This document shows, piece after piece, positions 4,058 through 47,000 of a stretch of 64,000 nucleotides of DNA. Numbering within the stretch: position 1 is the first letter of the stretch; the number at the start of each line of letters is the position of its first letter. The notes beneath the pieces were generated by a model, which was not told the origin of the DNA, made no database searches, and saw only the letters and a list, made by a program, of their open reading frames with translations. Source of the DNA: an uncultured delta proteobacterium (GTDB lineage Bacteria > Myxococcota > Myxococcia > Myxococcales > Myxococcaceae); NCBI GenBank assembly GCA_963796055.1, contig CAWCKH010000003.1, positions 608,001 through 672,000 on the forward strand, read 5' to 3'. A program made the position numbers and the translations under genes.

Positions 4058-4341
4058 GGCTTGCTCCGGTGGGCCGCGTCCAGCTCACCCCGGACGTCGG
4101 CGGCCATGAGGTCGCCGGGAGCCTCCTTCGCCAGGAGCTCGGAGTAGAGGGCCAGGGTGTCCTCGGCCTCGCTGGCCGGGATGCGGCGGATGGCGAACCC
4201 CACGTGGTTCAGCACGTAGTCGCCGGGAGCCACTGGCGCGTCCACCACGTCGAGCCGGACCTGCTTCCGCAGGCCCCAGAAGTCCACCGTGGCGACGAGC
4301 CCATCGACCTCCACCACCCGACCTGGCACTCCGAGGCACAT
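4054..4341 (-). CDS. hypC: Hydrogenase maturation chaperone HypC
   Basis: N-terminal MCLGVPG and GDYVLNHVGFAI. Confidence 0.96.
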   Translation of the reverse strand: MCLGVPGRVVEVDGLVATVDFWGLRKQVRLDVVDAPVAPGDYVLNHVGFAIRRIPASEAEDTLALYSELLAKEAPGDLMAADVRGELDAAHRSKP

Positions 4342-4353
4342 TGACGTCTCCTG

Positions 4354-6624: not shown

Positions 6625-6856
6625 GGCGGGCGGACCTCCGACTCCGAGCCGACGGTTCCGCTTCAGCAAGGGTCGAGCCACCGGCCCTCCCCGAGTCGAC
6701 GGCGTCTGGCAGGCGCATGCACTGCGCCTCGGGCCCGGGGACCACGCAATGACTGCGGAGCGCGACAGCGGGGACCCGTGCGGACGCGGACTTGGCTCGA
6801 AGGGGACACCCGGAGCCGCGAAGGATGCGTTCGCGTCCCCCCAGAGCGAGCCCCGC

Positions 6857-24582: not shown

Positions 24583-24738
24583 ACAGGTGGTGCTTCGGGA
24601 ACCCAACAAAACCAGGTCGTTGTGAGCTCACGCAATGGGGCTGCTTCGAGATTGATTTTGCGAGGCGTTCTCAAGTAAATGGGCAACGAATCCACCCTCC
24701 GGTGTCCTCCCCCTGGACGACCACGGTGGAGGACGAAG

Positions 24739-25233
24739 ATGCAGATTCAAGGCTCACCGCTGTTGCCCGACCTGACCCGGCTGATCACCAAGGCCCGCCG
24801 CACGCTGTACGTCGTCGCCGCGCGGGAGCTGGGAACCCGTGGTGAGGAGATCTCCGCCTGGATCGTCGCCGCCCGCCTGATGGAGCGGCGTGCGGCGAGT
24901 CAGAAGGACCTCGCGGAGATCACCGGTCAGCATCCGGCGGGGATCTCCCGCCTCCTCGACGAGATGGACCGGCGGGGCCTCACCGCCCGCGCGCTCGACC
25001 CGCTCGACCAGCGCCGGCGCCTGGTCACCCTGACCGCCGCCGGGCGCCGCTGGCACCGCAAGCTGGAGCCCCTGGTGCTGCGGGCGAGCGAGAACGTCCT
25101 GGGAATCCTGACCCTCACCGAGCAGCATCAGCTCCGCGGACTGCTGCGCCGGATCGGCGAGCCACAGCTGGTGCAGGGCCCGGGAACCGGTGACTCGGCG
25201 GCGGGCCCGCGGCGTCGCCGCGCTCAACGCTGA
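24739..25233 (+). CDS. MarR family transcriptional regulator
   Basis: SQKDLAE...ISRLLDEM..RGL..R..DPLDQRRRLVTLTAAG; SD GGAGG. Confidence 0.9.
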   Translation: MQIQGSPLLPDLTRLITKARRTLYVVAARELGTRGEEISAWIVAARLMERRAASQKDLAEITGQHPAGISRLLDEMDRRGLTARALDPLDQRRRLVTLTAAGRRWHRKLEPLVLRASENVLGILTLTEQHQLRGLLRRIGEPQLVQGPGTGDSAAGPRRRRAQR

Positions 25234-25439
25234 TCCGGCTTGCCGGGACGGTGGCGGGCAACGAACCACGAGAGGTAGGCCCCGAGCAGCACCGCGACCG
25301 ACAGCCCAGTCACCCCGAGTGCTTGCCAGTCCCCCCGCGCGGGCCCCTCCGGCCGGGACAGCCCGAAGATCGAGACCCCGATGCACACCACCAGCGCGGA
25401 GGTGATGACCACGCGGTGGACGGTGGAGAGCCGGACCAA
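25224..25439 (-). CDS. Small two-TM membrane protein, last gene of the oxidase operon
   Basis: TTG start with SD GAGGAG 14 nt after the cytochrome stop; two hydrophobic helices. Confidence 0.55.
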   Translation of the reverse strand: MVRLSTVHRVVITSALVVCIGVSIFGLSRPEGPARGDWQALGVTGLSVAVLLGAYLSWFVARHRPGKPDQR

Positions 25440-25453
25440 GCGCCTCTCCTCGC

Positions 25454-26395
25454 CTATTGTGGACCCTTGGGGGGAGGAGCGGAGCTCGCCAGCCGCGCCT
25501 TGAACGCCAGGGCCTGCTCGGTGTCTCGCATCCGGATGAGCGATCGGACGTAGTAGGCGAGAGCCCAGATGTCCCGGCTCTTGTCTGGGAGGACCTGGGG
25601 GTCCCACGCCGGCATCGCCGCGCCGGTCACGCCGGCGACGAGGATCCGGTACAGGTCGTTGAGCTCGGTGCCGGGCTGGATGGAACGGACCGGGTTGAGG
25701 AGGAAGTCCGGGGGGAGCAGCTTGACGGTCTTTCCGTCGGGGGCGGTGTAGTCGCTGTCCTTCAGCTCCGGCAGGTACATGTCGGGGCGGAAGTCGGTGG
25801 TGGGGTGGCCGCTCAGCTGTTGCGAGGCGGCGCTGATCTCCTCCGGCGTGGCGTAGGCGGGGTGGCAATTCAGGCACTGGGTGTAACCGTGGTAGAGGAG
25901 CTTCCCCCGGGCGATCGCCGCGGCCTCGTTGCCTGGCCCCCACGGGTCCGGAGCCGGTACCACCGGCTCCCCCACCGCATCGTCGTCCTTCCAGGCATCG
26001 GACAGCGTCTTGATGTACTGGATGATGGCGTGCAGCTCCCGGTCGGGGACCTCCCATCCCAGCATCGCCGTTCCGTGCAGGTTGCTCCGGACGATGCGGA
26101 CCAGGTCCTCGTCGCGGGGGAGCTTCTGCTCGAGCACGCCGGCGAACTTGAACTCCCCTTGCGTGAAGTTCCGCGGCGGGGGCCGCAGCCCGGGGGCGGA
26201 GGGGCCGTCGCCCTTCCCCTGCTCACCGTGGCAGGCACGGCAGTACTGGAGGTATGCGGTCCGGCCGTCGTTCAAGGTCGAGGCGGGGACCATCTTCCCC
26301 GCCAGCTTCATCGGCGCCTTGAACGGCCGGGTGTTCTCCTTGCTGCTACAGGCGGCGAGCAACAGCGCCAGAGCGCCCGCGGTCAGACCTCGCAT
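25454..26395 (-). CDS. Diheme c-type cytochrome lipoprotein
   Basis: Lipobox LLAAC; CRACH and CLNCH; Met ligands in GTAM and AAMP. Confidence 0.9.
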   Translation of the reverse strand: MRGLTAGALALLLAACSSKENTRPFKAPMKLAGKMVPASTLNDGRTAYLQYCRACHGEQGKGDGPSAPGLRPPPRNFTQGEFKFAGVLEQKLPRDEDLVRIVRSNLHGTAMLGWEVPDRELHAIIQYIKTLSDAWKDDDAVGEPVVPAPDPWGPGNEAAAIARGKLLYHGYTQCLNCHPAYATPEEISAASQQLSGHPTTDFRPDMYLPELKDSDYTAPDGKTVKLLPPDFLLNPVRSIQPGTELNDLYRILVAGVTGAAMPAWDPQVLPDKSRDIWALAYYVRSLIRMRDTEQALAFKARLASSAPPPKGPQ

Positions 26396-26398
26396 CGG

Positions 26399-27001
26399 TC
26401 AGCCTCCGCCCCAGCCGGCGAAGATCGCCGGGAAGAGGATGAGCCACACCCCGCCCACGAAGTGCCAGTACTGGGTCCAGAGGCGGAGCTTCAGATGACG
26501 CCCCGGCTGGATCGCTCCCCTGACCGCGGCCACCAGCACCGCAGCGAGCCCGCCGAGCCCCACCGCCGCGTGCAGCGCGTGGAAGCCGCAGAGCCCGTAG
26601 ACCGCGCCCCCGAACGCTCCGGCGTCCCAGCGTACCCCGGCATCGGCCATCCGGAGGAAGAGCAGCACCTGGCTGACGAGAAAGCCGACCCCGAGGAGCA
26701 GTGCCGCGACCAGCGCCCCGCGCATCGGCCCGAGCCGTCCCCTGCGGACGGCCCGGAGGGCGAGCTCCAGTCCGAGGCTCGCGCCGACGAGCAGGACGGT
26801 GTTCCCCACCGCCCAGCGCACCGGGAGCGGGCCCACCTCCTCGGGTGGCCACATCGGGCTTCGCCAGCGCACCACCCCGAGAGCAAAGAACAACCCGGCG
26901 AACATCATCGCCCAGCTCCCGAGGAAGAGGAGCATTCCCACCCGGGCGGTGGCCTCGTCGCGGGCGTGGGGCGAGCGGTAGGGGAGGACGCCGGAGGTCA
27001 T
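26399..27001 (-). CDS. Cytochrome c oxidase subunit III-like (copy 2)
   Basis: GMLLFLGS, NTVLL..S, GFHALH, YWHFV. Confidence 0.85.
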   Translation of the reverse strand: MTSGVLPYRSPHARDEATARVGMLLFLGSWAMMFAGLFFALGVVRWRSPMWPPEEVGPLPVRWAVGNTVLLVGASLGLELALRAVRRGRLGPMRGALVAALLLGVGFLVSQVLLFLRMADAGVRWDAGAFGGAVYGLCGFHALHAAVGLGGLAAVLVAAVRGAIQPGRHLKLRLWTQYWHFVGGVWLILFPAIFAGWGGG

Positions 27002-27008
27002 CGCTGGC

Positions 27009-28805
27009 TCACCCGCGCGCCGGCGACGCCGCAGGAACATCGCGCTCGTCCGGGAGCACCTCCGCCTGGCCGATCCAGTCGCGGCCCAGGCGCTTCCGCA
27101 CCTCGGGGCTGCTGAGCTCGTGTGGTCCGCGGCGGACGATGGGGAGGTGGTCGAAGTTGTGGATCGGCGGCGGCGAGGGGACGGACCACTCGAGCGTCCC
27201 CACCTGCCAGGGGTTGGCCTCGGCCTTCGGACCGCGGAACATCGAGTGGAGGAAGTTCCAGATGAACGCCAGCTGCCCGAAGAAGAGGGCGAACGCGGCG
27301 TAGCTGGTCCAGCGGTTCAGCGCCCGGAGCGGCTGCAGGTACTGGTAGACGAACGGGTCGTAGAGCCGCCGGTGCTGTCCCGAGTAACCGGCGAGGAGCT
27401 GTCCGCCGAACACCAGCGTCAGGCCGACCACGGTGAACCAGAAGTGCACCTTCCCCCAGCGCTCGTTGGTCAAACGCCCGAACATCTTGGGGTACCAGAA
27501 GTAGATGGCCGCGAAGCTGGCCATGACCGAGGCAGCGGCCATGGTGAAGTGGAAGTGGCCGACCACGAACATCGTGTCGTGCAGGTAGAAGTCGGGGGCC
27601 ACCGCCCCCAGATACAGGCCGGTCAGTCCTCCGAAACCGAAGACGAAGACCATCCCCAGGGCGAAGAGCATGGGGGTGGTGAGGCGGATCGAGCCCTTCC
27701 AGATGGTCCGCAGCCAGTTGAGGAACAGCAGCTCTGCCGGGAAGCTGATGATCAGGGTCAGCACCATGAAGGTCTGGCCGAGCAGCGGGTTGAGCCCGGT
27801 CATGAACATGTGATGTCCGTAGACCACCGCGCTGAGCGCGGTGACCGCCACCATCGCCAGGACCGACCCGCGGTACCAGTTCGCGGGCCGGCGGGCGAAG
27901 AACGCGACCAGGTCACCGACCACGCCCCAGGCAGGGAGGATGAGGATGTAGACCTCGGGGTGGCCGAAGATCCAGAACAGATGCTGGAAGAGGATGGGGT
28001 CTCCCCCGCCCTGGGTCGCCGCGCCTGCCAGGTAGAACTGGGTGCCGAGCATCCGGTCCAGCAGGAGCAGGAGCGCCGCCGAGCCCAGCACCGGAACGAA
28101 GAGCACGTTGAGCACCGCGGTCAGGAACAGTCCCCAGACGGTGAGCGGCATCCGGAAGTAGGTCATCCCCGGGGCCCGGAGCCGGATGGTGGTGGTGATG
28201 TAGTTGATGCCTCCCATGATGCTGGAGACGCCGGTGACGAAGATCGCCAGCACCATCAGGGTCTGACCGGAGCCCGGCGTGCCCACGTTGGTGGAGAGTG
28301 GGGCGTACGTCGTCCACCCCGCCCCCGCGGCGCCCAGGTCACCGAAGAACGAGCCCACCACCAGGCACAGCGCGAGGGCGAACACCCAGAAGCTGAGCGC
28401 GTTCAGCCAGGGGAAGGCCATGTCCCGCGCGCCGATCATCAGGGGGATGCAGTAGTTCCCGAACGCGCCGATCAGGATCGGGGTGATGGCGAAGAAGATC
28501 ATGATCAGCCCATGCATGGTGAACACCTGCATGTACTGGCCGGGGCCGATGGCCCCACCGGAGTCGCGGAGGAAGATCTGCCCCAGCACCGGCACCGGCC
28601 GCCCGGGGAAGGCCCACTGCCAGCGGATGAGCATGGCCAGCGTGCCGCCCACCAGGAAGAAGATCAGCCCCGCCCACAGGTACTGCTTGGCGATCACCTT
28701 GTGATCGAGCGACCAGATGTAATTGCGAAAGAAGGTGTTCGGCGGATGGTGAATGGGCTGGAGCGCCTCGGCCAATTCCAGGTTCACCTGCTCCTCGGCG
28801 ATCAT
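27009..28805 (-). CDS. coxA: Heme-copper oxidase subunit I (A-type, GHPEVY)
   Basis: SLDHK, FTMHG, DMAFP, GWTTY, FGHPEVY, GHHMF, LHDT, GHFH, HRRL; ATGA overlap with subunit II. Confidence 0.95.
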   Translation of the reverse strand: MIAEEQVNLELAEALQPIHHPPNTFFRNYIWSLDHKVIAKQYLWAGLIFFLVGGTLAMLIRWQWAFPGRPVPVLGQIFLRDSGGAIGPGQYMQVFTMHGLIMIFFAITPILIGAFGNYCIPLMIGARDMAFPWLNALSFWVFALALCLVVGSFFGDLGAAGAGWTTYAPLSTNVGTPGSGQTLMVLAIFVTGVSSIMGGINYITTTIRLRAPGMTYFRMPLTVWGLFLTAVLNVLFVPVLGSAALLLLLDRMLGTQFYLAGAATQGGGDPILFQHLFWIFGHPEVYILILPAWGVVGDLVAFFARRPANWYRGSVLAMVAVTALSAVVYGHHMFMTGLNPLLGQTFMVLTLIISFPAELLFLNWLRTIWKGSIRLTTPMLFALGMVFVFGFGGLTGLYLGAVAPDFYLHDTMFVVGHFHFTMAAASVMASFAAIYFWYPKMFGRLTNERWGKVHFWFTVVGLTLVFGGQLLAGYSGQHRRLYDPFVYQYLQPLRALNRWTSYAAFALFFGQLAFIWNFLHSMFRGPKAEANPWQVGTLEWSVPSPPPIHNFDHLPIVRRGPHELSSPEVRKRLGRDWIGQAEVLPDERDVPAASPARG

Positions 28806-29587
28806 TTCATCCTCGTGTGCTCTGCCCAGTCCCAGCCCCAGTGGGCCTCGGTGTCCTGGGGGTCGTATCCCTGCTGCGAGTTGGCGGAGGCGGCGGCCAG
28901 CCACTGTCGAAAACGAGCGGGCTCGACCACGTGCAGCATGCCCTGCATCTTGTAGTGGTTGGCGCCGCAGTGCTGGGCGCAGCCGATCTCGTAGTTCCCC
29001 AGCACCGCGGGGGTGAACCACATCCGGTTGATGGTCCCGGGCACCGCGTCGACCTTCATCCGCATGTTGGGGATGTTGAAGCTGTGGATCACGTCGATGG
29101 ACGCCACCTGAAACAGGCCCGGGGCGTCCTTCGGGAGGTACACCTCGTTCAGGGTGATGACGTCGTCCGGGGTGTTGAACTTGCCGTCCGGTCCGGCGTA
29201 GCGCACCTGCCAGGCCCACTGGTGGGCGTTGATCTCCACCCGCACCGCATCGTTCTGCTCCTCCGCCCAGTCGAAGTTCCAGTAGACGCGGTTGACCGCG
29301 ATCAGGGTCCGGACCAGGAGATCGCCGTCCACCACCACGAAGATCAGCCCTGCCACCCCCACGGTCCACAACCAGGAGCTCGGGCGCGCCCCGTGGTCGA
29401 ACTTCGCGGCATGGGTGGGGCCATGCTTGAGGATGGCCCAGCCCATCCAGCCGATCATGATCACGAAGATCAACGCCACGAAGAGCGAGGTGACGTTGAT
29501 CATCTCGTCGATCCGCCAGCCCTCCTTCGAGGCATCGAAGGGCAACCCGATCCCCAGCGGGCCGGCGGCGAGCAGGATCCGGCTCAC
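28802..29587 (-). CDS. coxB: Cytochrome c oxidase subunit II (CuA)
   Basis: Two TM helices, HQWAW..RY, DVIHSF, KVDAVPG, CAQHCGANHYKM. Confidence 0.93.
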   Translation of the reverse strand: MSRILLAAGPLGIGLPFDASKEGWRIDEMINVTSLFVALIFVIMIGWMGWAILKHGPTHAAKFDHGARPSSWLWTVGVAGLIFVVVDGDLLVRTLIAVNRVYWNFDWAEEQNDAVRVEINAHQWAWQVRYAGPDGKFNTPDDVITLNEVYLPKDAPGLFQVASIDVIHSFNIPNMRMKVDAVPGTINRMWFTPAVLGNYEIGCAQHCGANHYKMQGMLHVVEPARFRQWLAAASANSQQGYDPQDTEAHWGWDWAEHTRMK

Positions 29588-29748
29588 GGCTGCCCTCCTC
29601 CGGAGACCCGCCGGATCCCGAGGATGACCGCTCCGGCCACCAGGAACGGCGTGCCCAGCAGCGCGGGAAGGAGCACCAGCACCCCGGGGGAGGCGGAGTT
29701 GGCGGCGCAGGCCGGACAGGCAAGGAGCACCAGGTTCAAGAGGCTCAT
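29584..29748 (-). CDS. 54-aa CxxC membrane peptide, not in the ORF track
   Basis: MSLLNLVLLACPACAANSASPGVLVLLPALLGTPFLVAGAVILGIRRVSGGGQP; 4-nt start/stop overlaps with both neighbours. Confidence 0.7.
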   Translation of the reverse strand: MSLLNLVLLACPACAANSASPGVLVLLPALLGTPFLVAGAVILGIRRVSGGGQP

Positions 29749-30053
29749 CGGAAATGCCTCCAGGCGGCCTCGGCGATCAGCACCAGCCCGTACATCGCGG
29801 CGATGATCCCGGGCGCTGCCGCCATGCGCCGGAGGGCGATCGTCTCCCGGGAGAGGTGCATGGTGTAGAGCGCGAAGTAGACCGCCTGGGCAAGGGCGAG
29901 GAGGAGCAGCAATACCACCGTCCAGCGGGCGTGGCTGGGCACGAGGGCCACCGCCACCTCGAGCACGGTCAGGGCCACCATCACCCCCAGCATCACCAGG
30001 TACTCGCGGGTTCGGTGCTGGCTCGTCGTGGCAGCACCCGCGGTGCTGCTCAT
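29745..30053 (-). CDS. Cytochrome c oxidase subunit IV-like
   Basis: Y..ALTVLEV...YFALYTMHL..E; three TM helices. Confidence 0.8.
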   Translation of the reverse strand: MSSTAGAATTSQHRTREYLVMLGVMVALTVLEVAVALVPSHARWTVVLLLLLALAQAVYFALYTMHLSRETIALRRMAAAPGIIAAMYGLVLIAEAAWRHFR

Positions 30054-30691
30054 CACGGCACCCCGGTGGGGATGAGGTAGACCAGGACGAAGACCAGGTT
30101 CCAGACCAGGTCCACGAAGTGCCAGAACAGCGCCACCAGCTCGACCTCTCCGGCCCGCGCCACGCCCCGGGCGGTGCGTCCGAGCACCGCCAGAAGGTAG
30201 ATCACCCCGGCGGTGACGTGCAGCCCGTGGAAGCCGGTGATCACGTAGAAGGTGCTGGCGTAGGCCGACCGCCCGAACACCAGGCCCTCCTTCATCAGCC
30301 CGGGATGGAGGATCCCGATCCACTCGGCGTACTGGCCGGTGAGGAAGAGCACGCCGCCCAGCGCGGTGATCCCCAGCCAGAGCACGGCCCGGCGACGATT
30401 CTCCTGCAGGGCTGCGTCGTGGGCGACGATCACGCTGATGCTGGAGGCGATGAGCACCAGGGTCAGCAGCGAGGTGAAGGGGATGTTGAGCCCCGGCTCG
30501 CCGGGGTGCCGCCACACCGCACTTCCTGCCCGGAGGATGCCGTAGGCCAGCAGCAGTCCGAAGAAGGAGAGAAAGTCGGAGAGCAGGAAGACCCACATCG
30601 CCAGCTTGGCCGGGTTGGCCCTGCCGAACTGGGCGTCGGGCGGCCAGCTGGCGGTGATCTGCGGGTGGACGTGGGCGTGGGCGGTGGTCAT
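30053..30691 (-). CDS. coxC: Cytochrome c oxidase subunit III (copy 1)
   Basis: KLAMWVFLLSD, TFYVITGFHGLHV, LFWHFVDLVW. Confidence 0.9.
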   Translation of the reverse strand: MTTAHAHVHPQITASWPPDAQFGRANPAKLAMWVFLLSDFLSFFGLLLAYGILRAGSAVWRHPGEPGLNIPFTSLLTLVLIASSISVIVAHDAALQENRRRAVLWLGITALGGVLFLTGQYAEWIGILHPGLMKEGLVFGRSAYASTFYVITGFHGLHVTAGVIYLLAVLGRTARGVARAGEVELVALFWHFVDLVWNLVFVLVYLIPTGVP

Positions 30692-30704
30692 CGACTCCCT
30701 GGGT

Positions 30705-31478
30705 TCAGTCCTTCTGACGGAGCGTGTGGAGGAAATGCACCAGGTCCCAGGCCTCCTGCGGCTTGAGACTGTCGGCGAAGGACGGCATCGGCGTGCCGTT
30801 CACCCCGGTCATGAAGGTCCGGTAGAGGTCGATGTCGGTGTTCCCGCACTTCCGGGCGTCGCTGCTGGTGAAGTCGAACGGGGTGATGTGGTGACCCCAG
30901 TCGTCCATCAGCGTGGGGACCGAGAGACCGTTGCCCTTGCCCTCGGGGCCGTGGCACTTCGCGCACTGCATGTTGGCCCACACCACCGCGCCGCGCTTCC
31001 GGGACTCCTCGCTGTCCGAAGGCTCCGCTGGGATGGTGATGGGCTGTCCCGGCGCCTCTTCCTTCCACTTGGGAGAGAAGGTCTTGATGTACTCGATGAC
31101 CCCGCGGAGGTCGTAGTCGCCGAGCACCTCCCAGGTCGGCATGTACGTGTGGTAGATGCCGACCCGCTCGGTCCGCATCAGGTCCTCGTCGGTGGGCAGC
31201 GTGCCGCTGGGAGTCGAGCGGCACTTGAAGATCCCCGAGGTGAAGTCCCGCGGCATCGGGTCCAGCCACTGCGCAGAGTAGCCCAGGCCGTCGCCCTGGG
31301 CACCGTGGCAGCTGATGCAGAACCGCTCGTAGATCGGCTTGCCGCGGTTGACCAGGCCCTGGTCGATGGGGACCGGCGGTCGGTCGGCCCCGCCGCCCTG
31401 ATCGGCGGCGGGGAGCAGGGTCAGCGCAGCGAGAGAGCCGGTGAAGAGGAGGAGAGATCGGAGCGAGCGCATGGTCAT
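30705..31478 (-). CDS. Periplasmic diheme c-type cytochrome
   Basis: Signal peptide; CISCH and CAKCH; PRDFTSGIFK, TYMP and GTPMP. Confidence 0.92.
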   Translation of the reverse strand: MTMRSLRSLLLFTGSLAALTLLPAADQGGGADRPPVPIDQGLVNRGKPIYERFCISCHGAQGDGLGYSAQWLDPMPRDFTSGIFKCRSTPSGTLPTDEDLMRTERVGIYHTYMPTWEVLGDYDLRGVIEYIKTFSPKWKEEAPGQPITIPAEPSDSEESRKRGAVVWANMQCAKCHGPEGKGNGLSVPTLMDDWGHHITPFDFTSSDARKCGNTDIDLYRTFMTGVNGTPMPSFADSLKPQEAWDLVHFLHTLRQKD

Positions 31479-31489
31479 GTTCCTCCGGC

Positions 31490-32824
31490 TCAGAAGGCGA
31501 AGTCGATCCCGGCGAGCACAGTGGTGCCCTTCGGCTTCCTGCTGTTGGCGGTGTCGTCGTTGACCGTGTTGGTCACCTGGCTTCCTTCCAGCACCAGGGC
31601 GACGTCGGCCCGGTTCCCGAACTCGAGCGTCCAGCGGACTCCGAGGGTCAAGGCGGTCAGGTCACCTTCGCTCTCAGGGATGGTGTCCGTCCCCGCCTGA
31701 GTCGTCGTGATCCGCTCCCAGCGAGCGTAGACGATCCAGTTGAAGTTCGGGACGTAGCTCAGCTCCACGAACCCGCCGATCCACTGGGCGGAACGGACCC
31801 CGTCGGTGATCAGCGCCTGGTCCTCGTTCCCGGCCATGAACACCCCGGTGAGGTCGAGCGGATTGACGTTGCTCAGGAAGAGAAGGTGCAGGTCCGCGCC
31901 GTACTTCTGGTACGGCTGGTTGGAGTACGCGGTCCCGTTCACCGGAACGGCCTCCCCGGTCGCGGGATCGGTCTGGGTCAGCGCCTGCGTCGGATGCCAC
32001 CCGACCGCCCCGAAGACCCCGCCTTTCACCTCGGGGAGGATCGAGTTGTTCAGGAGCAGCTTCCCCGAGATGCGGCCCCAGACCACCGGCGAGCTGACCC
32101 AGTTCTTGGAGAAGATCGCTCCGTTCTCGTTGAGGACCGAGACCGAGTATCGAAGCGCGTTCAGCTCGGTATGGCCGTAGACCTCCACCCCCACCTGGTT
32201 CTCTCCGGGCTCGAAGGTCACGGCGCTGCCCTGGGGATGGAAGTGGTAGATGTTGTAGCCTTGGGTGAGGCTGATGATGCGGTGCTCATCCACCGGGAGA
32301 TCCGGGGCGTGCTTTCCCACCCGGACGTTGAGGAACGGCGTCCCGAACAGGCGGTGGAACCCGACGAAGGCGGATTCGAGGTCTCCGTCCGCCGGCTCGG
32401 TCCCGAACGAGGCACTCCCCAGCCCGGGAGTGTAGACCACCAGGAAGCTGATCTGCTTCCCGAGCGTGCCGGCAGTGAGGATGTCCAGGCCGGCGAAACC
32501 CAACGTGCCGTTCTTGGTGGTGGTGGTCCCGGGCGGCTGATCGACCGGGACCCCCTCCTGCTCGGCGTACTGGTAGCCCACGGTGGTGCGGAAGGCGATC
32601 GGCCAGTACGTGCCGGGCTGCTCCTTGGGTTCGTCCTTCCCACGGAGCATCTGGTAGCCGTTGTCGCGGAACAGCTCGCCGAAGTCGTTCAGCTTGGGCC
32701 AGGCCTCGTGGCACGTGCTGCAGGCCACGTTGTACTTCCGGGCGAACGCCGGGATGGCGTTGGCTTTCCCGGGAAGCAGCGCTGCCAGTGCGGCAGCGGC
32801 GACGACGAGGACGCGCAGCTTCAT
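31490..32824 (-). CDS. Cyc2-like monoheme cytochrome-porin fusion (outer membrane)
   Basis: Signal peptide, then AIPAFARKYNVACSTCHEAWPKLNDFGELFRDNGY (PxFAR-CxxCH-PxL-G-F-GY pattern), beta-strand-rich body, C-terminal DFAF. Confidence 0.8.
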   Translation of the reverse strand: MKLRVLVVAAAALAALLPGKANAIPAFARKYNVACSTCHEAWPKLNDFGELFRDNGYQMLRGKDEPKEQPGTYWPIAFRTTVGYQYAEQEGVPVDQPPGTTTTKNGTLGFAGLDILTAGTLGKQISFLVVYTPGLGSASFGTEPADGDLESAFVGFHRLFGTPFLNVRVGKHAPDLPVDEHRIISLTQGYNIYHFHPQGSAVTFEPGENQVGVEVYGHTELNALRYSVSVLNENGAIFSKNWVSSPVVWGRISGKLLLNNSILPEVKGGVFGAVGWHPTQALTQTDPATGEAVPVNGTAYSNQPYQKYGADLHLLFLSNVNPLDLTGVFMAGNEDQALITDGVRSAQWIGGFVELSYVPNFNWIVYARWERITTTQAGTDTIPESEGDLTALTLGVRWTLEFGNRADVALVLEGSQVTNTVNDDTANSRKPKGTTVLAGIDFAF

Positions 32825-32865
32825 GCCACCCTCCTCCCGCGAGCCACCCAGGGAACCCGGGCGGC

Positions 32866-32996
32866 AAGATTGCGCGCGCAACTAAAAAGGCAGTCCGCGA
32901 GAAATTCCAAACAAGCGATTCTCACGCCACGGTGCGTCGTGTGAAGCAGAAGCGATGGGCGCGGGCCTGGAATCGCCACTTCATTGCTCGGTCAAT
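32866..32996. promoter_or_regulatory. Two ATTG-N6-CAA(T/C) boxes upstream of the cytochrome-porin gene
   Basis: AAGATTG-cgcgcg-CAAC (32866-32882) and TTCATTG-ctcggt-CAAT (32980-32996) in an AT-richer intergenic region. Confidence 0.45.
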
Positions 32997-33032
32997 CTTT
33001 GAACAGAAGTCCCCCCGGAACGCCGCCAAGAG

Positions 33033-33560
33033 TCAGCGACCGTTCACCACCTGGGTGATGGCGGGCAGCAGCTCCCGGCCGGGCGGCTCGGCGAGTGCAG
33101 GCAGCGCGCGGACCCGGCCGCCGGGGTCGATCAGCACGGCACGCTCGCCGCGGCGGAGCTCCCGCTGCTCGGGGCTTCGTCCCAGCAACGCGACCAGGGG
33201 TGCGGCGCGGGCTTCGTCGTCCAGCACCAGCACCGTCGGCGCGAGCGGAGGCGCCGCATCCCCCGACCCCAGTCGAACCCACTCCAGATCGAAGCCCGGC
33301 CGGACGGAGCGGAGATGGCGGGAGAGCGTTCGCAGCGCCTCCGAGCTGCTGGCAACGCAGCCGGGGCAGGTCGTGTCGGCGAACACGACCAGCCGCCCCC
33401 TCCCGGTGGCCGGGACCCGATCGATGACCGGCAGGGGAGTGGGTGGACGGCGGAGCAACCCCGAGAGAAGGGGGCCCCCGGCGAGGAGCGCCATCGCCGT
33501 CCACCAGAATGCCGGGCGCGCCACCCAGCGCTCGAGGAAGCCGGTCGCGGCGGCGCTCAC
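33033..33560 (-). CDS. Membrane-anchored thioredoxin/SCO-like protein (CxxC)
   Basis: N-terminal TM, PLPVI, VVFADTTCPGC, VLIDPGGRVR; GTGA overlap with the upstream gene. Confidence 0.6.
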   Translation of the reverse strand: MSAAATGFLERWVARPAFWWTAMALLAGGPLLSGLLRRPPTPLPVIDRVPATGRGRLVVFADTTCPGCVASSSEALRTLSRHLRSVRPGFDLEWVRLGSGDAAPPLAPTVLVLDDEARAAPLVALLGRSPEQRELRRGERAVLIDPGGRVRALPALAEPPGRELLPAITQVVNGR

Positions 33561-34258
33561 TTCTTGATCTTTGCGTCGTAGGTAGCCTTCCCCCCGGCGG
33601 GGATGGTGACCGTGCCGAGCTTGGTCCCGGCGACCTCCTGGAAGGTGCCGATCTGGTAGGTCCCGGGCGGGACGTCCTTGATCTCGTACTTGCCCTCCGC
33701 ATCGGTCACCGCCGCGTAGGGGTTCTCGGCCACGAAGAGCGCCCCGCGCATGAAGTTGTGGATGTCGCACTTGAGGGACTGGCCGCCCGCCTTGTTCATC
33801 TTCTTCCCCACCACCATCCCCTGCTTGGGCTCGGCGATGTTCAGGATGGTCCGGCCCTCCTGGTAGGAGTGGATGTTGTGGAGGATGGGGTCGCTGTTCT
33901 TCACCTCGAGCTCGGAGTTGCGAGCGATGATCTGCACGTGAGGCTCGTACCGGCAGCCTTTCTGATCGAGCGTCGGCTTCGGGGGGAGGTCCATCTTCTT
34001 TCCGCTCTTGATGTCCACCAGGTAGACCACCGCCTCCTTCACCCCCCCAGTGGGCGAGACCACCAGCTCGTCCAGCTCGCGTGAGGTGCCGCAGGTCCCC
34101 GGGTCCTGGGTGATGGTCACCTTCTCCGGCTTGGGCGGGGTGCCGTCGTAGGTGATGCGCCCGCTGATCGTGCCCCCGTTGGTGACCGGCCCCTCGGTGT
34201 ACTGCGCGCGGGCGAGGGTGGTGACGGTGAGGACGGCGACCAGGAGTGTCTTTCGCAT
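33557..34258 (-). CDS. Periplasmic cupredoxin-like protein with carboxypeptidase-regulatory-like beta domain
   Basis: Signal peptide; LDQKGCRYEPHV, NSDPILHNIH, CDIHNFM (His plus C-x2-H-x2-M), TDAEGKYEIKDVPPGTY. Confidence 0.75.
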   Translation of the reverse strand: MRKTLLVAVLTVTTLARAQYTEGPVTNGGTISGRITYDGTPPKPEKVTITQDPGTCGTSRELDELVVSPTGGVKEAVVYLVDIKSGKKMDLPPKPTLDQKGCRYEPHVQIIARNSELEVKNSDPILHNIHSYQEGRTILNIAEPKQGMVVGKKMNKAGGQSLKCDIHNFMRGALFVAENPYAAVTDAEGKYEIKDVPPGTYQIGTFQEVAGTKLGTVTIPAGGKATYDAKIKK

Positions 34259-34329
34259 GAGCGGCTCCAGTTCCGTTGGTGGAGGACGAGAGAGACGTTC
34301 CGGCCGCCAGCTGGTGGATGTCAACGAAG

Positions 34330-34353
34330 GATTCATTGAATCTGCAATGAATC
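34330..34353. promoter_or_regulatory. Perfect inverted repeat, candidate operator
   Basis: GATTCATTG-aatctg-CAATGAATC about 70 nt upstream of the cupredoxin gene. Confidence 0.65.
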
Positions 34354-34503
34354 AAGCAAGCCCCGAGCTCGAGACCCGGCCAGGCCATGACTCCACGCGG
34401 CAATTCTTTGCCCGGCCGCCTGGTTGCAGTGTCCGCGGGTCAGGACTGCTCACGCAAGCGATCAGATTCCGCCCTCGGCGGCGCCCTGAGTCCTCGGGCA
34501 GTG

Positions 34504-34590
34504 TGCTCGGGGAGGGGGTCGAACCCTCACAGCCCTGATCGGGCTCGCGGATTTTAAGTCCGCTGCGTCTACCGGTTCCGCCACCCGAGC
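34504..34590 (-). tRNA. tRNA-Leu (anticodon TAA)
   Basis: GCTCGGG/CCCGAGC acceptor stem, D-loop GG, anticodon arm GCGGA-CTTAAAA-TCCGC, long variable arm, GGTTCGA T-loop; CCA not encoded. Confidence 0.95.
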
Positions 34591-41029: not shown

Positions 41030-44000
41030 CTACTTCCGCGTGGGCACCTCGACGTTGGTCCCCACCGCCAGTCGCAGCGCGGCGAGGTCCTCCGACACCG
41101 CGAAGGTCATCAGCTCGCGGATCTTCACCTTGCCCGCGACGCGGTAGCTCGAGCCGGTTTCACCCTGGACGAGCTTCTTCACCGCCTCGAGGTCTCCCGC
41201 GGTGAATAGCGCACAGCGGACCCCGGTCAGCTCTGCCCCCTCCAGGTATTCCCGGACCGGGTCCGATTCATTCCGCCGGAGCACCTCCGGGACCAGCCGG
41301 GCCAGCGCCGCGCGGAAGGGCTCGGTCATCACCGACTCGAGCGCATTCCGCTCGGCCTCGATGGCCGGAGCCGGAGCGGTCCAGCGCATCTGGAACCCGG
41401 CGAGCAGCACCGCGCCCTGGAACACCGCCGCCAGCCGCTCGGGGGCGAAGCGCGAGGCGAAGATGAGCTCGGGCCGGAGCAGCGCCAGCATGCGCCCGAG
41501 CTGGGCGTGGGTGTCCTTCGCCTGGGGATCGCCGAAGAACTTTCCGCCGACCTTCAGGCACACCGGCTGGGAGTGGATGATCTCCACCCCGAGGAGCGGG
41601 TCGGGGGCGGGCTCCATCGAGCGCTTGGCGAGCTTGTCGCGGGTGGCCACCAGGAACGGCGAGAAGAGCTCCACCGCCTCCAGCCCCAGCAGCCGCGCCA
41701 CCGCGCGGTAGTGGTGGATCTGGTACTCCTGGGCGGTCGCCACGTCGATCCGGTGCTTCTTGGGGATCAGCTGCGCCTGGGCGAGGGGGACCGCGGAGAG
41801 CTGACCCGCGCCCTGGAAGAGCAGGCCCATCAGCTCGGCGAACGGGGTCCGCGCCTTCGGGTGGAGCAGGTGCTGGGCCCAGAGCCGATCGTTGAGCGTG
41901 GCCCGCGGGGTCTCGCGCTTCTTCGCGTACGGCCCGAGCTTGCCGATGATCTCCTTCTCCGCCGGACCGGGGTCCCCGAGCAACCCCGCGACCACCTGGG
42001 CAGCGAGCCACGCACCGTCGTAGTCCTTCCGGCGCGCGGCGAGCTCGGCGAGCTGGCTCGCGATCTTCTTCGGATTCTGGGTGTGGGCCAGCGCCCGCCG
42101 CAGCGCCTGCACCGCGGGCTCCTCGTTCCCGGACGACTGGAGGAGGAGGTCGGCGTAGGTCTCCTGGACAGTGGCGTCGTCGGGGAGTCCCGCCGCGGCC
42201 ACCTTGTATGCCATCAGCGCGCTCTCCGGCTGCTTCAAGACTTGAAGGTAGAGGTCTCCCAGGGTCCGCCACAGCGCCATCCGCGCCGACTCGGTCTCGT
42301 CGGTCTTCGGCAGCCGCTGGATCATCCGGGCGTAGTTCTCCTCCAGCTGCTTCCACTCCTTCGCCGCCCCGAGCATCGCCTCGATGCTGCTGAAGGCCTC
42401 GATGAACAGCGGATCCAGGTCGAGGGCCGCGTTGAAGGCCTCCACCGCCCGGCCCGTGTCACGCAGCTCGTCGCGGAGGCTCTCGCCCAGCGCGAACCAC
42501 ACCCGCTTGGCGCGCTGCGCGTCGGCCTGCAGCTCGGGTTGCCCGAGCATGACTTCCAGTATTTCGGCGGCCTTCCCCGGCTGGCGGGTTTCCCGGAAGA
42601 GCACGTAGAGCGCGTCCATCACCTCCAGCGACTGCGGGCGGATCCGAAGGGCCTGGCCGTAGGCGTCGATGGCGGTGTGCAGGTCCTTGAGCCGGTCGCG
42701 GGCGATCTGCCCCAGCTCCAGCGCGGCCTCGGCCTTCGGGTCGCCGTCGAGGATGTTGACCAGCGCCTGCCGGTACTCGGCCGAGCGGTCCCAGCGCCCT
42801 GCCCCGTCCGCGAGCTGGATCAGCGAGCGGAGGCTCGGCTCGTGGCCGGGATCGATGGCCAGCGCCTTCTCGAAGTGGTTCTGCGCCCGGTCGTACTGCT
42901 TGAGCGCGATGTGCACCTCGCCGATCTGCCAGTACAGCTCGACGATCTCCAGATCGGTCAGGTCCTCGCGGTGGTGGATGAGGATGGTCTGGAAGACTTT
43001 CAGCGCCAGGTCGTGCCGGCCGGACTGGACCAGGAGGTTCCCGTAGCCCTCGAGCGCGGGGAGGTAGGTGGCGTCGAGCTGGTAGGCCTCCTCGTACGCG
43101 GCCAGCGCCCGGTCTCGGCGTCCCAGCTTCTCCTGCACGTACCCCATCCGGTAGACCTGCCGGCACAGGTCCCTCTCCAGGGCCTCGTCCTGCTCGCTGG
43201 CGAGCCGGCCCTTGAGGTTGCGGATGACCACGTCGAGCATCTTCTCCGCCGGCTCCCAGCGCTCGCGGGCGAGGTAGAGGTCGGACAGCGGCAGCGCGGC
43301 CTCGGCCTGCTCGGGGTCGAGCTTGATCGCCTCCTCGTACCACTGCATCGCCGAGTCGGCGTCCTCGCGGCGCTCGCTGTGGTAGCGCCCCACGGCGAGG
43401 TAGGCCAGGGACTTGGCCGAGGCCTCGCTGGTGGCCTGGGCCTCGGCGACCAGGATCTGCTCGTAGCTTTCCCAGTCCTGCTCGTTCTCGGCGATGCCGC
43501 GGAGCGCTTGCAGCGAGGGCAGGTACTCGGGATCGATGCGCAGGGCCTCGGAGTAGCAGGCCTTGGCCGAGGACACGTCCTGCAGCATGTCCTCGTTGAT
43601 CTTCCCCATCCGGTGCAGCACCTCGACCGCGCGGGGGTCGCGCCCCAGCGCCTCGGCTTCCTGGTGCAGCATCTCCAGGGCGAAGGGCCAGTTGCCGCTC
43701 CGCTCGTAGACCATGCCCAGGGCGTGGAGCGCCGGGGTGTGGCCGGGGTGGACGCCCAGCGCGGCCTGGAACGCGTCCGCGGCCTTGTCGGTCTGGTGCA
43801 GGTGGGAGCGAAGCACCTCTCCGGCCTCCACCATGATGTCGGCCTGCTCCTGGGAGTCGATGGCGAGCTGGATGTGCCGCTCCAGCACTCCCACCAGGTC
43901 CTCCCAGCGGCCCTGCGCCCGCCGCAGCCGCTCCAGCGCCTTGATCGCCTGGAGATTGGTGGGATCGAGCGCGAGCACACCCTCGATGCAGGCGTCGGCG

Positions 44001-47000
44001 TTGGCCGCGTTCTGGTAGCGGTCCTCCCAGATGGCCGCGGAGTGGAAGAGGATCTTCACCTTCTCCCGGTAGTCCTCGGTCAGCTCCAGCTGCCGCTCGT
44101 AGATGGTCAGCATGTCCGCCGGCCGGTCCAGCCGGGTGTAGAGGCGCTCCAGCGCCGAGAGAGCCTCTGCGTTCCTCGGGTCGAGCCCCAGGGCCTCGCG
44201 GTACGCCTCGACCGCGGCCTCCTCGTCTCCGATCTCCCGTTCCTGGACGCCGGCCATTTCCACCTGCATCCGCGCCCGCTCCTCGGAGCTGGGCAGCAGA
44301 TCCCGGGTCCGGGCGAGCGTGGCGGCGAGGTCGCCCCACATGTGCTGGTCGCGGTAGAGCCTGGCCAGCTCGCCGAGCGTCTCCACGTCGGGCTCGAGCT
44401 CCAGCGCGCGGATGAGGGCGTTGGCCGCCTCTTCCGGATCCTTCAGCCGCTCGAGCTGGATGCGGGAGATCTCCCGGAAGAGGGTCTTCCGGGCCTCGAG
44501 CGACGGGGCGGCCTCAATCTTCTGCTCCAGCGAGACGATGAGCTCGCGGTCCCGTCCGCGGCGCCCGAACATCTGGGCCATCGCGTCGAGCGCGGAGGAG
44601 TTGGTGGGATCGAACTCGAGGATCTTCCGGAGCGCGGCCTCGGCCTCGCCGGGGTCGTCCAGGTTCCGGTCCTGCACCCGGGCCAGGACCAGGTAGAGCC
44701 GCTCCGCGAGCGGGCCACGGGGAAGATCGTCCGCCACCTGCTCGTAGACCGCGGCCAGCTCCTCGTACGAGCCGGTCTCCTGCGCCAGCCGCTCCACGTC
44801 CTCACGGAGCGAGTCGTCCGAGGCGGCGAGCTGCAGCGCCCGACAGAGGGCGAGGAAGGCGCCGTCCTTCTGCCCCAGCTTGTGCTCCCGGATACGGCCC
44901 AGCTCGCGCAGCGCCTTGATCTTGTCCTCGTCGGTGACGAGGTTCGGCAGGTAGCGGTCCACCGCCTGGGCGTAGGCGCGCCAGTCGCCGGCGTCGGAGT
45001 AGAGCGACAGCACCCGCTCGTGGGCACCCCGGTTCGCCGGGTCGAACTCCAGCACCCGCTCCAGGATGGGCGCCGCCAGCTCGGCCTTGCCGGCCTGGCC
45101 AATCCACAGCTCGGCGATCTCGAACAGCGCGGCGATGACCCCCTCCTTCTCCTCCAGCCGTTGCCAGACCTCGGCCTTCAGCTCCAGGGTGCGGACCGCG
45201 TCGCCGAAGGCGCGGAGCCCGAGGAAGAGCTTCCCCACCGCCTCGAGGTCCTGGACGATGTGCGGCTCGATCTCCAGCGAGCGCCGGGCAGCATCCAGCG
45301 CTTCCTCGCGCCGGCCCATCTCGCCCAGCACCTCTGCCAGCCGGATGCGGAGCCCCTTGACCCCCTCGGGGCTCTCTTGCAGCGGGATGAGCCGCCGCAG
45401 CACCGCGACCAGCTCCTCGCGCCGCCCGAGCTGCTCGTCGATGTCGCGCAGCGTCTCCAGCGCGTTCCGGTTGCGCGCATCCCGCTCCAGCGCCGTGCGC
45501 AGCGGGGCGATGGCCTCCTCGGCCCGTCCGAGCTGCCGGTAGAGCACCACGCCCAGCTTCTCGTTCAGGCGCACCAGCTCCCGGGGCTCGGCGACCTGGG
45601 GAATCTTCCCCGCCATCAGCGCCCTGAGATCTTCCCACCGGCCAGCCTTCTCCAGCGCCTGCTCCAGCGCGCCGAACGCCTGGTCCGACCTGGGGTTCTT
45701 CTTGAACAGCTCGCTGTACAGCTCGATGGAGGCCTCGAGGTCGGCCAGCCCCTCCGCGGAGACCTTCACCATCTTGGCCAGGATGCGCTCGCGTTCCGGG
45801 CCGGAGGTCAGGTCACGCTGGATGCGCAGAACGTTGAACAGCCGGTCCGGTGTCCCGCTGCGCTCGTAGATGGACTCCAGCAGCCGGGCGGCGGGGAGGT
45901 GCGTCCGGTCGATGGCCAGTAGCCGCTCGAAGGCGTCGGCGGCGCGGGGCTCGTCCTCCAGCTCGTCCTGGGCCACCTGGCCGAGGCGGAAGAGGATCTG
46001 CACCCGCTCGTTGCCGTCGGGGGTGAGCGTCTCCAGCTCGTCCAGGCTCTGGACCAGCCGGTCGCTCCGGCCCGCCTGACCATAGAGCCGGGCCAGCGCG
46101 GTGAGCGCGGGGAGGGCGGTGGCGGCGTCGAGCTCCCTGGCACGCTCCAGGACCTCGATCGCCCGGGCCGGGTTGGAGAGGTGCTGCTCGTAGAGGCCGC
46201 CCAGCTCCAGCAGCACCGCCGCGGCGTCCTTGGTCTCGGCGATGCGGGGAAGCTCCTCCTCGTAGAGCTGGGCCAGCGCCTCGTGGGTCCTCCCCGCATC
46301 GGCGGCCTTGCCCACCCGGCTCCGGAGAGTGGGGTCGTTGGGATCCTCCTGGAAGGCGCGGGAGAGCGCACCGAAGAGCCCGGCCGGGTCGTGGGCCGCC
46401 TCGCTCAGGCCCGCCAGCTCCACCAGGAGCTGCTTGCGCTCGAACGGGTCGGCCGAGGCGCCGACGCGAAGCTCGAGGAGCTGCGCCAGCTTCCCCTGCT
46501 CTGCCGTGGTCCGGTAGGCGCCGAGCAGCACGTCGACCAGCGGCTTGTTCTGGGGCTCGCGCTGCGCCCAGGCCTCGAGCTGCGCCAGCGCGCCGGCGTG
46601 CTTCGGCTGGGCGGCGAGGACCTGCCCGTACAGCTCGAGGGCGCCGTACTTATCGAGGAGCCGCGTCTCGCGGACGATGGCCAGACGGGTCCGGAGGTCG
46701 AGGTCGAGGTCCCCGCCGGGCAGCGCGAGCCGCCGGCCGATGACGTCCGCCAGCTCGGGCCAGCGCTCCTGCTTCTCGCAGAGCGCGTCGAGCTTCTCCA
46801 GCGCCTGGGCGTCGTCGGGCTTCAGCTCCAGCAGCCGCCGGAGCGTGGCCATGGCACCGACCGTGTCGTGGAGGGCGCCGTCTTGCAGCCCGGCGATCTG
46901 GAAGAGCAGCGCGGCGCGGACCGCCGGCTCCTCGGTGATCGACAGCTGGCGCCGGTAGATCTCCAGCAGCTCGGGGGCGCGGCCGGCGGACTGGTAGAGC

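Follow-up and report, generated by a model that had tools for sequence, protein, structure and literature searches.

Gene cluster and encoded proteins

The 64,000-nt window examined here (the whole stretch of DNA that was analysed; all coordinates are positions within it) carries on its minus strand a single run of twelve genes (25224-34258) that encode a Cyc2-type cytochrome-porin together with a cupredoxin, two diheme cytochromes c and the subunits of a haem-copper oxidase. The host genome measures 5.53 Mb in 7 contigs and is 98.5% complete. The window has a G+C content of 70% and its lists of open reading frames (ORFs) are crowded; the twelve genes were identified by ORF reading together with third-position G+C (GC3), which is 0.87-0.94 across the run. 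Analysis of their spacing showed that successive genes overlap by 1-32 nt or lie 3-14 nt apart, the sole exception being a gap of 208 nt between genes 2 and 3 (in order: -4, 208, 11, 13, -1, -4, -4, -4, -32, 3 and 14 nt). An earlier reading of the window from its letters alone (hereafter the original prediction) had described twelve co-oriented genes, mostly overlapping or joined by short gaps, and this was borne out by coordinates and GC3. The export features encoded in the cluster are Sec signal peptides, one lipobox and one membrane anchor. Searches of Pfam and NCBIfam gave nothing above threshold for the cupredoxin candidate, a 175-aa CxxC protein, the 444-aa CxxCH protein, a 54-aa peptide and a 71-aa membrane protein, and even at E ≤ 10 they returned no match for the Cyc2-like 444-aa protein, the 175-aa protein and the 54-aa peptide.

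The 444-aa protein (31490-32824, minus strand) is a fused monoheme cytochrome-porin of the Cyc2 family. Keffer 2021 (PMC8406198) defines Cyc2 by a signal peptide, a single CXXCH, the motif AXPXFAR[Q/K][T/Y] with five residues from FAR to the first Cys, PXL four residues after CXXCH, a minimum of 365 aa and an OprO/OprP-like porin of 16 strands. The 444-aa protein possesses every one of these sequence and fold features. Its N-terminus, read in the sequence, is hydrophobic and ends in A-N-A just before A-x-P-x-F-A-R-K-Y, an exact match to the consensus with five residues from FAR to the first Cys, and P43-K-L45 begins at the fourth residue after the His. The PxFAR-CxxCH-PxL motif that had led the original prediction to Cyc2 is therefore present exactly as in the published consensus. 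The only cysteines are C35 and C38, followed by H39, and since there are only two, the protein has one CXXCH and one haem. In an alignment of 35 homologues, these residues and the N-terminal motif as a whole are invariant, and the C-terminus shows a DFAF/Y beta-signal.

The AlphaFold2 (AF2) model of the protein (predicted local distance difference test score, pLDDT, 78; predicted template modelling score, pTM, 0.78) contains 16 strand elements between residues 76 and 443. A Foldseek search of the PDB with this model showed PorB (3a2s, E 1.9e-12) as the top match, followed by OprP (2o4v, E 1e-11) and OprO (4rjw, E 2.8e-11), with Omp38 also found and all four within E 2e-12 to 3e-11. The OprP and OprO structures are the two entries named for Cyc2PV-1 in Keffer 2021 (PMC8406198). 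The barrel expected in the original prediction was thus recovered, with porin matches, while the N-terminal haem domain that should accompany it was modelled with low confidence (see below). By sequence, neither the single protein nor a wider-alignment profile gave a meaningful match in the PDB. The gene has one copy in the host genome. The family is large, with 2264 matching cluster representatives at E ≤ 0.001, 414 at E ≤ 1e-10 and 67 at E ≤ 1e-30, and all named members encountered are annotated as 'hypothetical protein'. Among 20 distant cluster representatives, the names are only those of hypothetical proteins from Nitrospiria, Gemmatimonadaceae, Myxococcales, Nitrospirae and Pseudomonadota metagenome-assembled genomes (MAGs); the ESM Atlas neighbours are likewise 'hypothetical protein' clusters, of Aminicenantota, Nitrospirota and Acidobacteriota, one of which has Porin_O_P on 20% of its members.

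The first gene of the run (33557-34258, minus strand) encodes a 233-aa periplasmic cupredoxin with a Sec signal. The original prediction had extended this gene to 34336; the start at 34258 is preferred because it yields a signal peptide and is conserved in relatives. The predicted His plus CxxHxxM with amicyanin spacing proved correct: the copper loop is C164-x2-H167-x2-M170 with H127, and H127, N128, H130, C164, H167 and M170 are invariant in 28 homologues. When the family profile was compared with the PDB, the matches were the blue copper protein 5fc9 (E 7.3e-6), the cupredoxin domain of NirK and amicyanin 1sf3 (E 1e-4). The AF2 model (pLDDT 91.1, pTM 0.87) matched amicyanin, plastocyanin, 5fc9, pseudoazurin and CuA domains in Foldseek at E ~1e-5, and it showed the cupredoxin domain to be inserted in a CarboxypepD_reg-like beta-sandwich. 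The protein thus carries the type-1 copper ligand set on a cupredoxin fold, as judged from sequence and model, and copper binding is predicted. It shares with amicyanin and other small cupredoxins (1aac, 5fc9, plastocyanin) the His, Cys, His and Met ligands, the C-x2-H-x2-M spacing and the fold, but it differs from them in sitting in a second beta-sandwich, in an identity of only 17-22% and in matching no Pfam cupredoxin model at cut-off (PF13473 E 0.22). Its only Pfam match, itself below cut-off, is CarboxypepD_reg (E 7.6e-5); that the gene encodes a mere CarboxypepD_reg protein was ruled out by the PDB profile and fold searches.

The second gene (33033-33560, minus strand; GC3 0.87) encodes the 175-aa protein, which is membrane-anchored and has the motif CPGC. 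It had been called SCO-like, a label that finds no family support: SCO proteins have CxxxC, and there is no match to PF02630 (SCO1/SenC). Its ESM Atlas neighbours include SCO1-SenC clusters (0.89-0.91), so that a thioredoxin/SCO-type fold is only a lead, and one from a language model.

Two diheme cytochromes c are encoded in the cluster. The gene next to that of the porin (30705-31478, minus strand) specifies a soluble periplasmic protein of 257 aa in which PF00034 matches two stretches (E 6.3e-21), and the penultimate gene (25454-26395, minus strand) specifies a lipoprotein of 313 aa with the lipobox LAAC, in which PF13442 matches two stretches (E 2.7e-13). In the PDB, the soluble protein matches 6h5l_B over its full length (E 2.4e-51) and the lipoprotein matches it over its N-terminal half (E 5.5e-26). 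We take this chain, named 'conserved hypothetical cytochrome protein', to be the diheme redox partner of an HAO-like enzyme. 6H5L is given in a preprint as the HAO entry of Kuenenia stuttgartiensis. The window proteins are homologous to this chain, although the redox partner and the organism are different, and the homology would indicate only a soluble electron-transfer diheme cytochrome. Both window proteins also show, in the first domain, a weak likeness to Leptospirillum cytochrome 579 (NF033864, E 1.6e-10 and 4.5e-10, far below cut-off).

The oxidase genes lie between the two diheme cytochrome genes on the same strand. In the order of transcription they encode a first subunit III (30053-30691; PF00510 E 8.3e-18), a prokaryotic-type subunit IV (29745-30053; PF03626 E 6.5e-10, TIGR02229 E 2.3e-6 and below cut-off), subunit II (28802-29587; PF00116 E 8.8e-14), subunit I of the A type (27009-28805; PF00115 E 2.1e-134) and a second subunit III (26399-27040; PF00510 E 2.7e-15). 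The assignments of CoxI, CoxII, two CoxIII, CoxIV and two diheme cytochromes made in the original prediction were therefore all confirmed by Pfam. Subunit I has the motif GHPEVY, and its best PDB matches are aa3 oxidases (mycobacterial 6adq_F, E 3e-120; Paracoccus 1ar1_A, E 7.8e-118). Alignment of subunit II to 4w9z showed that the CuA ligands His, Cys, Cys, His and Met are all conserved, and the protein has a complete CuA site with no fused cytochrome c domain. By its sequence, the enzyme is an A-type haem-copper oxidase with an intact CuA site; because the CuA ligands are in place and no cytochrome c is fused to subunit II, it would be a cytochrome c (or cupredoxin) oxidase and not a quinol oxidase. 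The Pfam scan revealed neither ctaA/ctaB, for haem A synthesis, nor genes for bc1 or alternative complex III (ACIII) in the cluster.

The genome contains three COX1-family genes, two of them besides the cluster copy. One belongs to a second A-type oxidase cluster, CoxII-CoxI-CoxIII (contig C4, 1927163-1930207), and the other is more distant (contig C4, 1031-2317). The cluster CoxI is only 37% identical to the other A-type CoxI, implying that the cluster oxidase is a dedicated paralogue. That the cluster provides the cell's only aa3 oxidase was ruled out by the three COX1-family genes.

The remaining products are small and have no family in Pfam or NCBIfam. A hydrophobic 54-aa CxxC peptide (29584-29748, minus strand; GC3 0.87) is encoded between subunits IV and II, with 4-nt overlaps on both sides. 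The last gene (25224-25439, minus strand; GC3 0.89) encodes the 71-aa membrane protein, which has two helices and is kept at 80-88% in the four same-genus loci that span its position.

Conservation of the module and relation to known systems

Conservation was examined in two sets of loci. The first (the named loci) consists of the best 80 of 552 relatives in species-representative genomes, taken with 10-kb flanks and searched by tblastn with the twelve window proteins; the second consists of 20 Myxococcota loci from 19 genomes, several of which also contribute to the first. The named loci are mostly from Acidobacteriota (Terriglobales, Ca. Acidoferrum/Acidiferrales, Thermoanaerobaculia, Vicinamibacteria); Myxococcales or 'delta proteobacterium' MAGs are present at 46-77% identity, and Nitrospira, Nitrosospira, Steroidobacterales, Gemmatimonadaceae, Eisenbacteria, Limnocylindria, Dongiaceae and Verrucomicrobiia contribute a few each. 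P.FAR-x5-CxxCH was found in all 80, and the motif including PXL at the spacing of the window in 74; in the Nitrospira/Nitrosospira group, PXL comes one residue later.

The results showed that a homologue of the soluble diheme cytochrome is present in 73 of the 80 loci, directly after the porin gene in 67, and that a cupredoxin homologue lies within 10 kb in 67. The C-x2-H-x2-M loop occurs in 60 of the 66 cupredoxin-homologous ORFs from these loci; the other six, situated some 9-10 kb from the porin gene, seem to be paralogues. Within the same distance, CoxII was found in 46 loci, CoxI in 45 and CoxIII in 44. The order porin-diheme-cupredoxin-CoxII-CoxI-CoxIII on one strand is that of 27 of the 80, and the Myxococcota order, with CoxIII before CoxII, that of seven. 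Homologues of the 175-aa CxxC protein (5/80 named, 9/20 Myxococcota loci) and of the 54-aa CxxC peptide (4/80 and 8/20) were found in few of the named loci. The synteny was found across Myxococcota as well: the diheme gene adjoins the porin gene in 20 of the 20 Myxococcota loci and CoxI is within reach in 15, and the set of twelve genes is the same in all four loci of the genus that cover the region. These results demonstrate that the linkage of Cyc2, diheme, cupredoxin and cox genes is conserved across phyla and that the module is commoner in Acidobacteriota than in Myxococcota.

Among 401 sampled Myxococcota genomes, 97 matched the porin at E ≤ 1e-5, many of them over the N-terminal motif only. 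Matches were present in five of eight further genomes of the window's genus and in seven of seven of one sister genus; the sampled genera with 9-Mb genomes gave none. In a FastTree phylogeny of 77 porin sequences, all 12 Myxococcota-type rows form one clade (Shimodaira-Hasegawa (SH)-like support 100), nested in a group with Thermoanaerobaculia- and Vicinamibacteria-type Acidobacteriota and Steroidobacterales, and the Acidobacteriota rows need at least eight label changes. Because an outgroup is lacking, the tree is not read for the direction of transfer.

A plasmid search with the porin gave three weak N-terminal matches, two in Ralstonia and one in Methylocystis. The megaplasmid NZ_CP115953.1 of Ralstonia solanacearum CFBP2957 carries an unannotated 446-aa Cyc2-type ORF with the full motif (2432-3772 of the extracted locus), followed by a diheme cytochrome c ORF (3670-4431 of the extracted locus), in a region where the PLSDB table shows no feature. 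When the family profile was aligned to this ORF by hhalign, the probability was 98% (E 2.1e-13) over the 54-column cytochrome domain only. Keffer 2021 (PMC8406198) counts Ralstonia among the genera that have Cyc2. Plasmid NZ_CP107559.1 of Methylocystis sp. MJC1 encodes a 552-aa 'hypothetical protein' with a Cyc2-type cytochrome domain (hhalign probability 98%); its gene is followed by three c-type cytochrome genes (3827-7597 of the extracted locus), and an IS66 transposase gene adjoins on the plasmid.

The closest known gene cluster is the rus operon. According to the literature, rus-type operons occur in Acidithiobacillus, Acidiferrobacter and Acidihalobacter, have the order cyc2-cyc1-cup-coxBAC and are induced by Fe(II). 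The likeness to this operon drawn in the original prediction holds for the set of components (a Cyc2-type cytochrome-porin, a diheme cytochrome c, a cupredoxin and an aa3-type oxidase in one cluster) and for the 27 relatives' loci that have the printed rus order; it fails for the window's own gene order and for the type of its diheme cytochromes. In the window, unlike in rus, the cupredoxin gene lies upstream beside that of the CxxC protein, CoxIII-CoxIV precede CoxII, there are additional genes for a second CoxIII, for the lipoprotein diheme cytochrome and for two small membrane proteins, and no ctaA/ctaB is seen. The hosts also differ, an acidophilic autotroph in the one case and a soil Myxococcota genome without RuBisCO in the other.

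Compared with Cyc2PV-1 of Mariprofundus ferrooxydans and other Cluster 1 Cyc2, as described in Keffer 2021 (PMC8406198), the window protein has the same motif, a single haem, a similar length and an OprO/OprP-like 16-strand porin, but its nearest named relatives are from Acidobacteriota, Steroidobacterales and Nitrospira and not from Zetaproteobacteria or Gallionellaceae. According to Li 2023 (PMC10654088), Cyt572 of Leptospirillum originates from a densely connected cluster in a network of homologues, made up of Acidobacteria and Nitrospira sequences, and PorB is the best match to its model. The window porin shares this taxonomic neighbourhood and has PorB as its top fold match, and the weakly Cyt579-like first domains of the two diheme proteins are a further likeness to Leptospirillum, in which, by contrast, the oxidase is of the cbb3 type and the genes are unclustered (Li 2023, PMC10654088). 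By analogy, the window porin may point towards Cyc2 Cluster 3, which is only a lead.

The original prediction had overstated the novelty of the finding. Cyc2 in Myxococcota or 'Deltaproteobacteria' is already in print in a Cyc2 tree, a hot-spring MAG table and a boreal-lake survey. No description of this operon in Myxococcota or Acidobacteriota was found in the passages of the Cyc2 literature that were examined; the supplementary trees and tables of these papers may hold such sequences.

Proposed source and direction of the electrons

We propose that the cluster would carry electrons from an extracellular reductant, most probably dissolved Fe(II), to O2, and we give this reading a probability of about 0.55. 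From the component identities, the export signals and the linkage across phyla, which were established by sequence comparison and computation, we infer that Fe(II) would be oxidised at the haem held in the porin barrel and that the electron would pass to the soluble diheme cytochrome and/or the cupredoxin. The next carrier would be the lipoprotein diheme cytochrome tethered at the inner membrane, the likely donor to CuA of subunit II, and the A-type oxidase would then reduce O2 and build a proton-motive force. As RuBisCO is lacking and two further haem-copper oxidases are present in the genome, the module would not underlie autotrophy; it would instead supply accessory energy for litho-heterotrophic growth or act as a sink that detoxifies Fe(II). 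This looks like facultative litho-heterotrophy.

A number of observations weigh against Fe(II) as the donor or against the path as drawn. A RuBisCO large subunit was not found in the 98.5%-complete host genome. None of the 20 listed sequencing runs that share the 9.1-kb stretch is an RNA run; all 20 are DNA runs from metagenomes of soil, rhizosphere or plants, and their word shares reach 0.39 at most. In the AF2 model of the porin-cytochrome, the N-terminal haem domain is helical and poorly defined (pLDDT <50 for residues 15-45), which is to be expected because no haem was modelled. The carriers are not those of rus: the diheme proteins are not c4-type, as Cyc1 is, and in place of a rusticyanin/AcoP-type cupredoxin there is an amicyanin-like one embedded in CarboxypepD_reg. 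Among the soluble diheme protein's 25 PDB matches at E ≤ 0.01 there is no cytochrome c4 or Cyc1 chain, and since neither diheme protein matches a c4-type cytochrome, both would be analogues and not orthologues of Cyc1; for the cupredoxin, Acidithiobacillus ferrooxidans AcoP appears only at Foldseek ranks 44-45, and rusticyanin is absent among the matches listed. No CoxI lies within 10 kb in 35 of the 80 named loci, implying that Cyc2-diheme also works without this oxidase. None of the iron-oxidising genera named in the Cyc2 literature, as far as it was available, is among the labels of the best 80 of 552 relatives, and Keffer 2021 (PMC8406198) warns that Cyc2 function is least certain outside Cluster 1.

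Instead of Fe(II), the donor of the same chain could be another small reductant able to get to the outer membrane, for instance a humic or quinone compound in reduced form, Mn(II), Cu(I) or a reduced species of sulfur or nitrogen, which we regard as unlikely. Carriers that differ from those of known iron oxidisers, a soluble diheme cytochrome homologous over its full length to 6H5L chain B, and hosts that are soil heterotrophs with no reputation as iron oxidisers all fit such a donor, and Keffer 2021 (PMC8406198) allows that Cyc2 may have additional functions. Yet the Cyc2-family members for which assays are reported in the available literature (A. ferrooxidans Cyc2, Cyt572, Cyc2PV-1 and Ca. 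Mariimomonas Cyc2) all oxidise Fe(II), the motif matches exactly, and the gene order of the relatives copies that of the Fe(II)-induced rus operon. A different view, to which we give slightly less credence and which we judge unlikely as well, is that the oxidase is an ordinary alternative enzyme of the aa3 type, with periplasmic carriers of its own and supplied by the cell's quinol:cytochrome c oxidoreductase. The porin would then serve a secondary purpose, for instance defence against Fe(II) or reactive oxygen species, handling of haem or metal, or solute uptake, and would not be where respiratory electrons enter. The other oxidases of the genome and the probably organotrophic host are compatible with this, the Myxococcota-specific extras (second CoxIII, CoxIV and CxxC proteins) resemble oxidase assembly or accessory parts, and the cupredoxin/CxxC pair can be transcribed separately. 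However, the cluster has no bc1 or ACIII genes, Cyc2 and diheme genes are adjacent in 67 of the 80 loci, and the trio that they form with the cupredoxin travels across phyla with or without the oxidase; this adjacency and distribution are easier to reconcile with a dedicated relay from the outer membrane to the periplasm than with an accessory of the oxidase.

The relay might also run outwards, with the porin-cytochrome exporting periplasmic electrons to Fe(III) or another acceptor when O2 is scarce. A monoheme relay is reversible in principle, and the boreal-lake MAG survey names Cyc2 among the extracellular electron transfer proteins of Myxococcota and refers to experiments on such transfer in Anaeromyxobacteraceae. 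The gene is linked, however, to an O2 reductase and not to a quinol dehydrogenase or a multihaem conduit, and Cyc2 is not reported as a reductase in the Cyc2 literature at hand; outward flow is accordingly very improbable. Uptake of electrons from outside the cell, most probably from Fe(II), is the reading that we prefer.

A wider proposal can be put forward tentatively, and we would sooner doubt than assert it: the rus-like module would give abundant, supposedly organotrophic soil bacteria a facultative Fe(II) respiration with O2 at non-extreme pH, and heterotrophs would then carry out much of aerobic soil iron oxidation. The carriers would be the small-genome Myxococcota genus studied here and, above all, many Acidobacteriota. 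If this is true, microbial iron oxidation would not be confined to specialist autotrophs (Gallionellaceae, Zetaproteobacteria and acidophiles) but would be an accessory energy source of common soil heterotrophs, and the attribution of Fe, C and P cycling at oxic-anoxic soil interfaces would change. The chief interest of the cluster is this breadth among soil heterotrophs. The cluster also serves well as a test of that part of the Cyc2 family which is least certain, being a non-Cluster-1-looking Cyc2 with carriers and terminal oxidase adjoining; should the donor prove not to be iron, it would provide the first evidence, as judged from the Cyc2 literature available, that Cyc2-type porins serve other extracellular reductants.

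Control regions and flanking genes

The 208-nt intergenic region (32825-33032, minus strand) upstream of the Cyc2-like gene contains a promoter-like site at 32945-32918, found by a consensus scan, and a conserved TTGCGCGCGCAA palindrome. In the -10-like box, which reads CGTGAGAAT in the window, CGTGA and the following AA are invariant in five same-genus genomes. The palindrome (about 32868-32883, minus strand) is perfect in the window, and one base differs in one of the five same-genus genomes. This region of palindrome and -10-like box may be an operator or a hairpin in the 5′ untranslated region.

The control region upstream of the cupredoxin gene (34259-34502, minus strand) is squeezed between the cupredoxin start and a tRNA-Leu gene. 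It contains an invariant TCGTTGACA, which is -35-like, and an AT-rich inverted repeat, as seen in five same-genus genomes. In the window, the repeat reads GATTCATTG-n6-CAATGAATC (about 34325-34350, minus strand) and lies just upstream of TCGTTGACA, in a genome of 70% G+C; an activator or repressor of the cupredoxin unit may bind there. In one same-genus genome (contig C16, 8500-20821), the cupredoxin/CxxC pair is inverted and divergent from the Cyc2-cox unit. The conserved promoter-like block in the 208-nt gap and the inverted pair together suggest two transcription units, and on sequence grounds two promoters are likely, one for the cupredoxin and the CxxC protein and the other for the genes from Cyc2 through the small membrane protein.

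In the flanks of the cluster, Pfam and NCBIfam revealed genes for a MarR-type regulator, a CDF transporter, an alkaline phosphatase, Ffh and a GltJ-like gliding protein. The GltJ-like gene (E 9e-123, narrowly below its cut-off) places the DNA in Myxococcota, and the named relatives point to the same phylum. The gene of the MarR-family regulator (24679-25233, plus strand) runs towards the cluster and shares 10 nt with its last gene. On the other side, the tRNA-Leu gene (anticodon TAA; 34503-34590, minus strand) stands directly upstream of the cluster. Further on, a 3094-aa ORF (41030-50314, minus strand) with a GC3 of 0.95, a strong coding signal, adjoins the GltJ-like gene.

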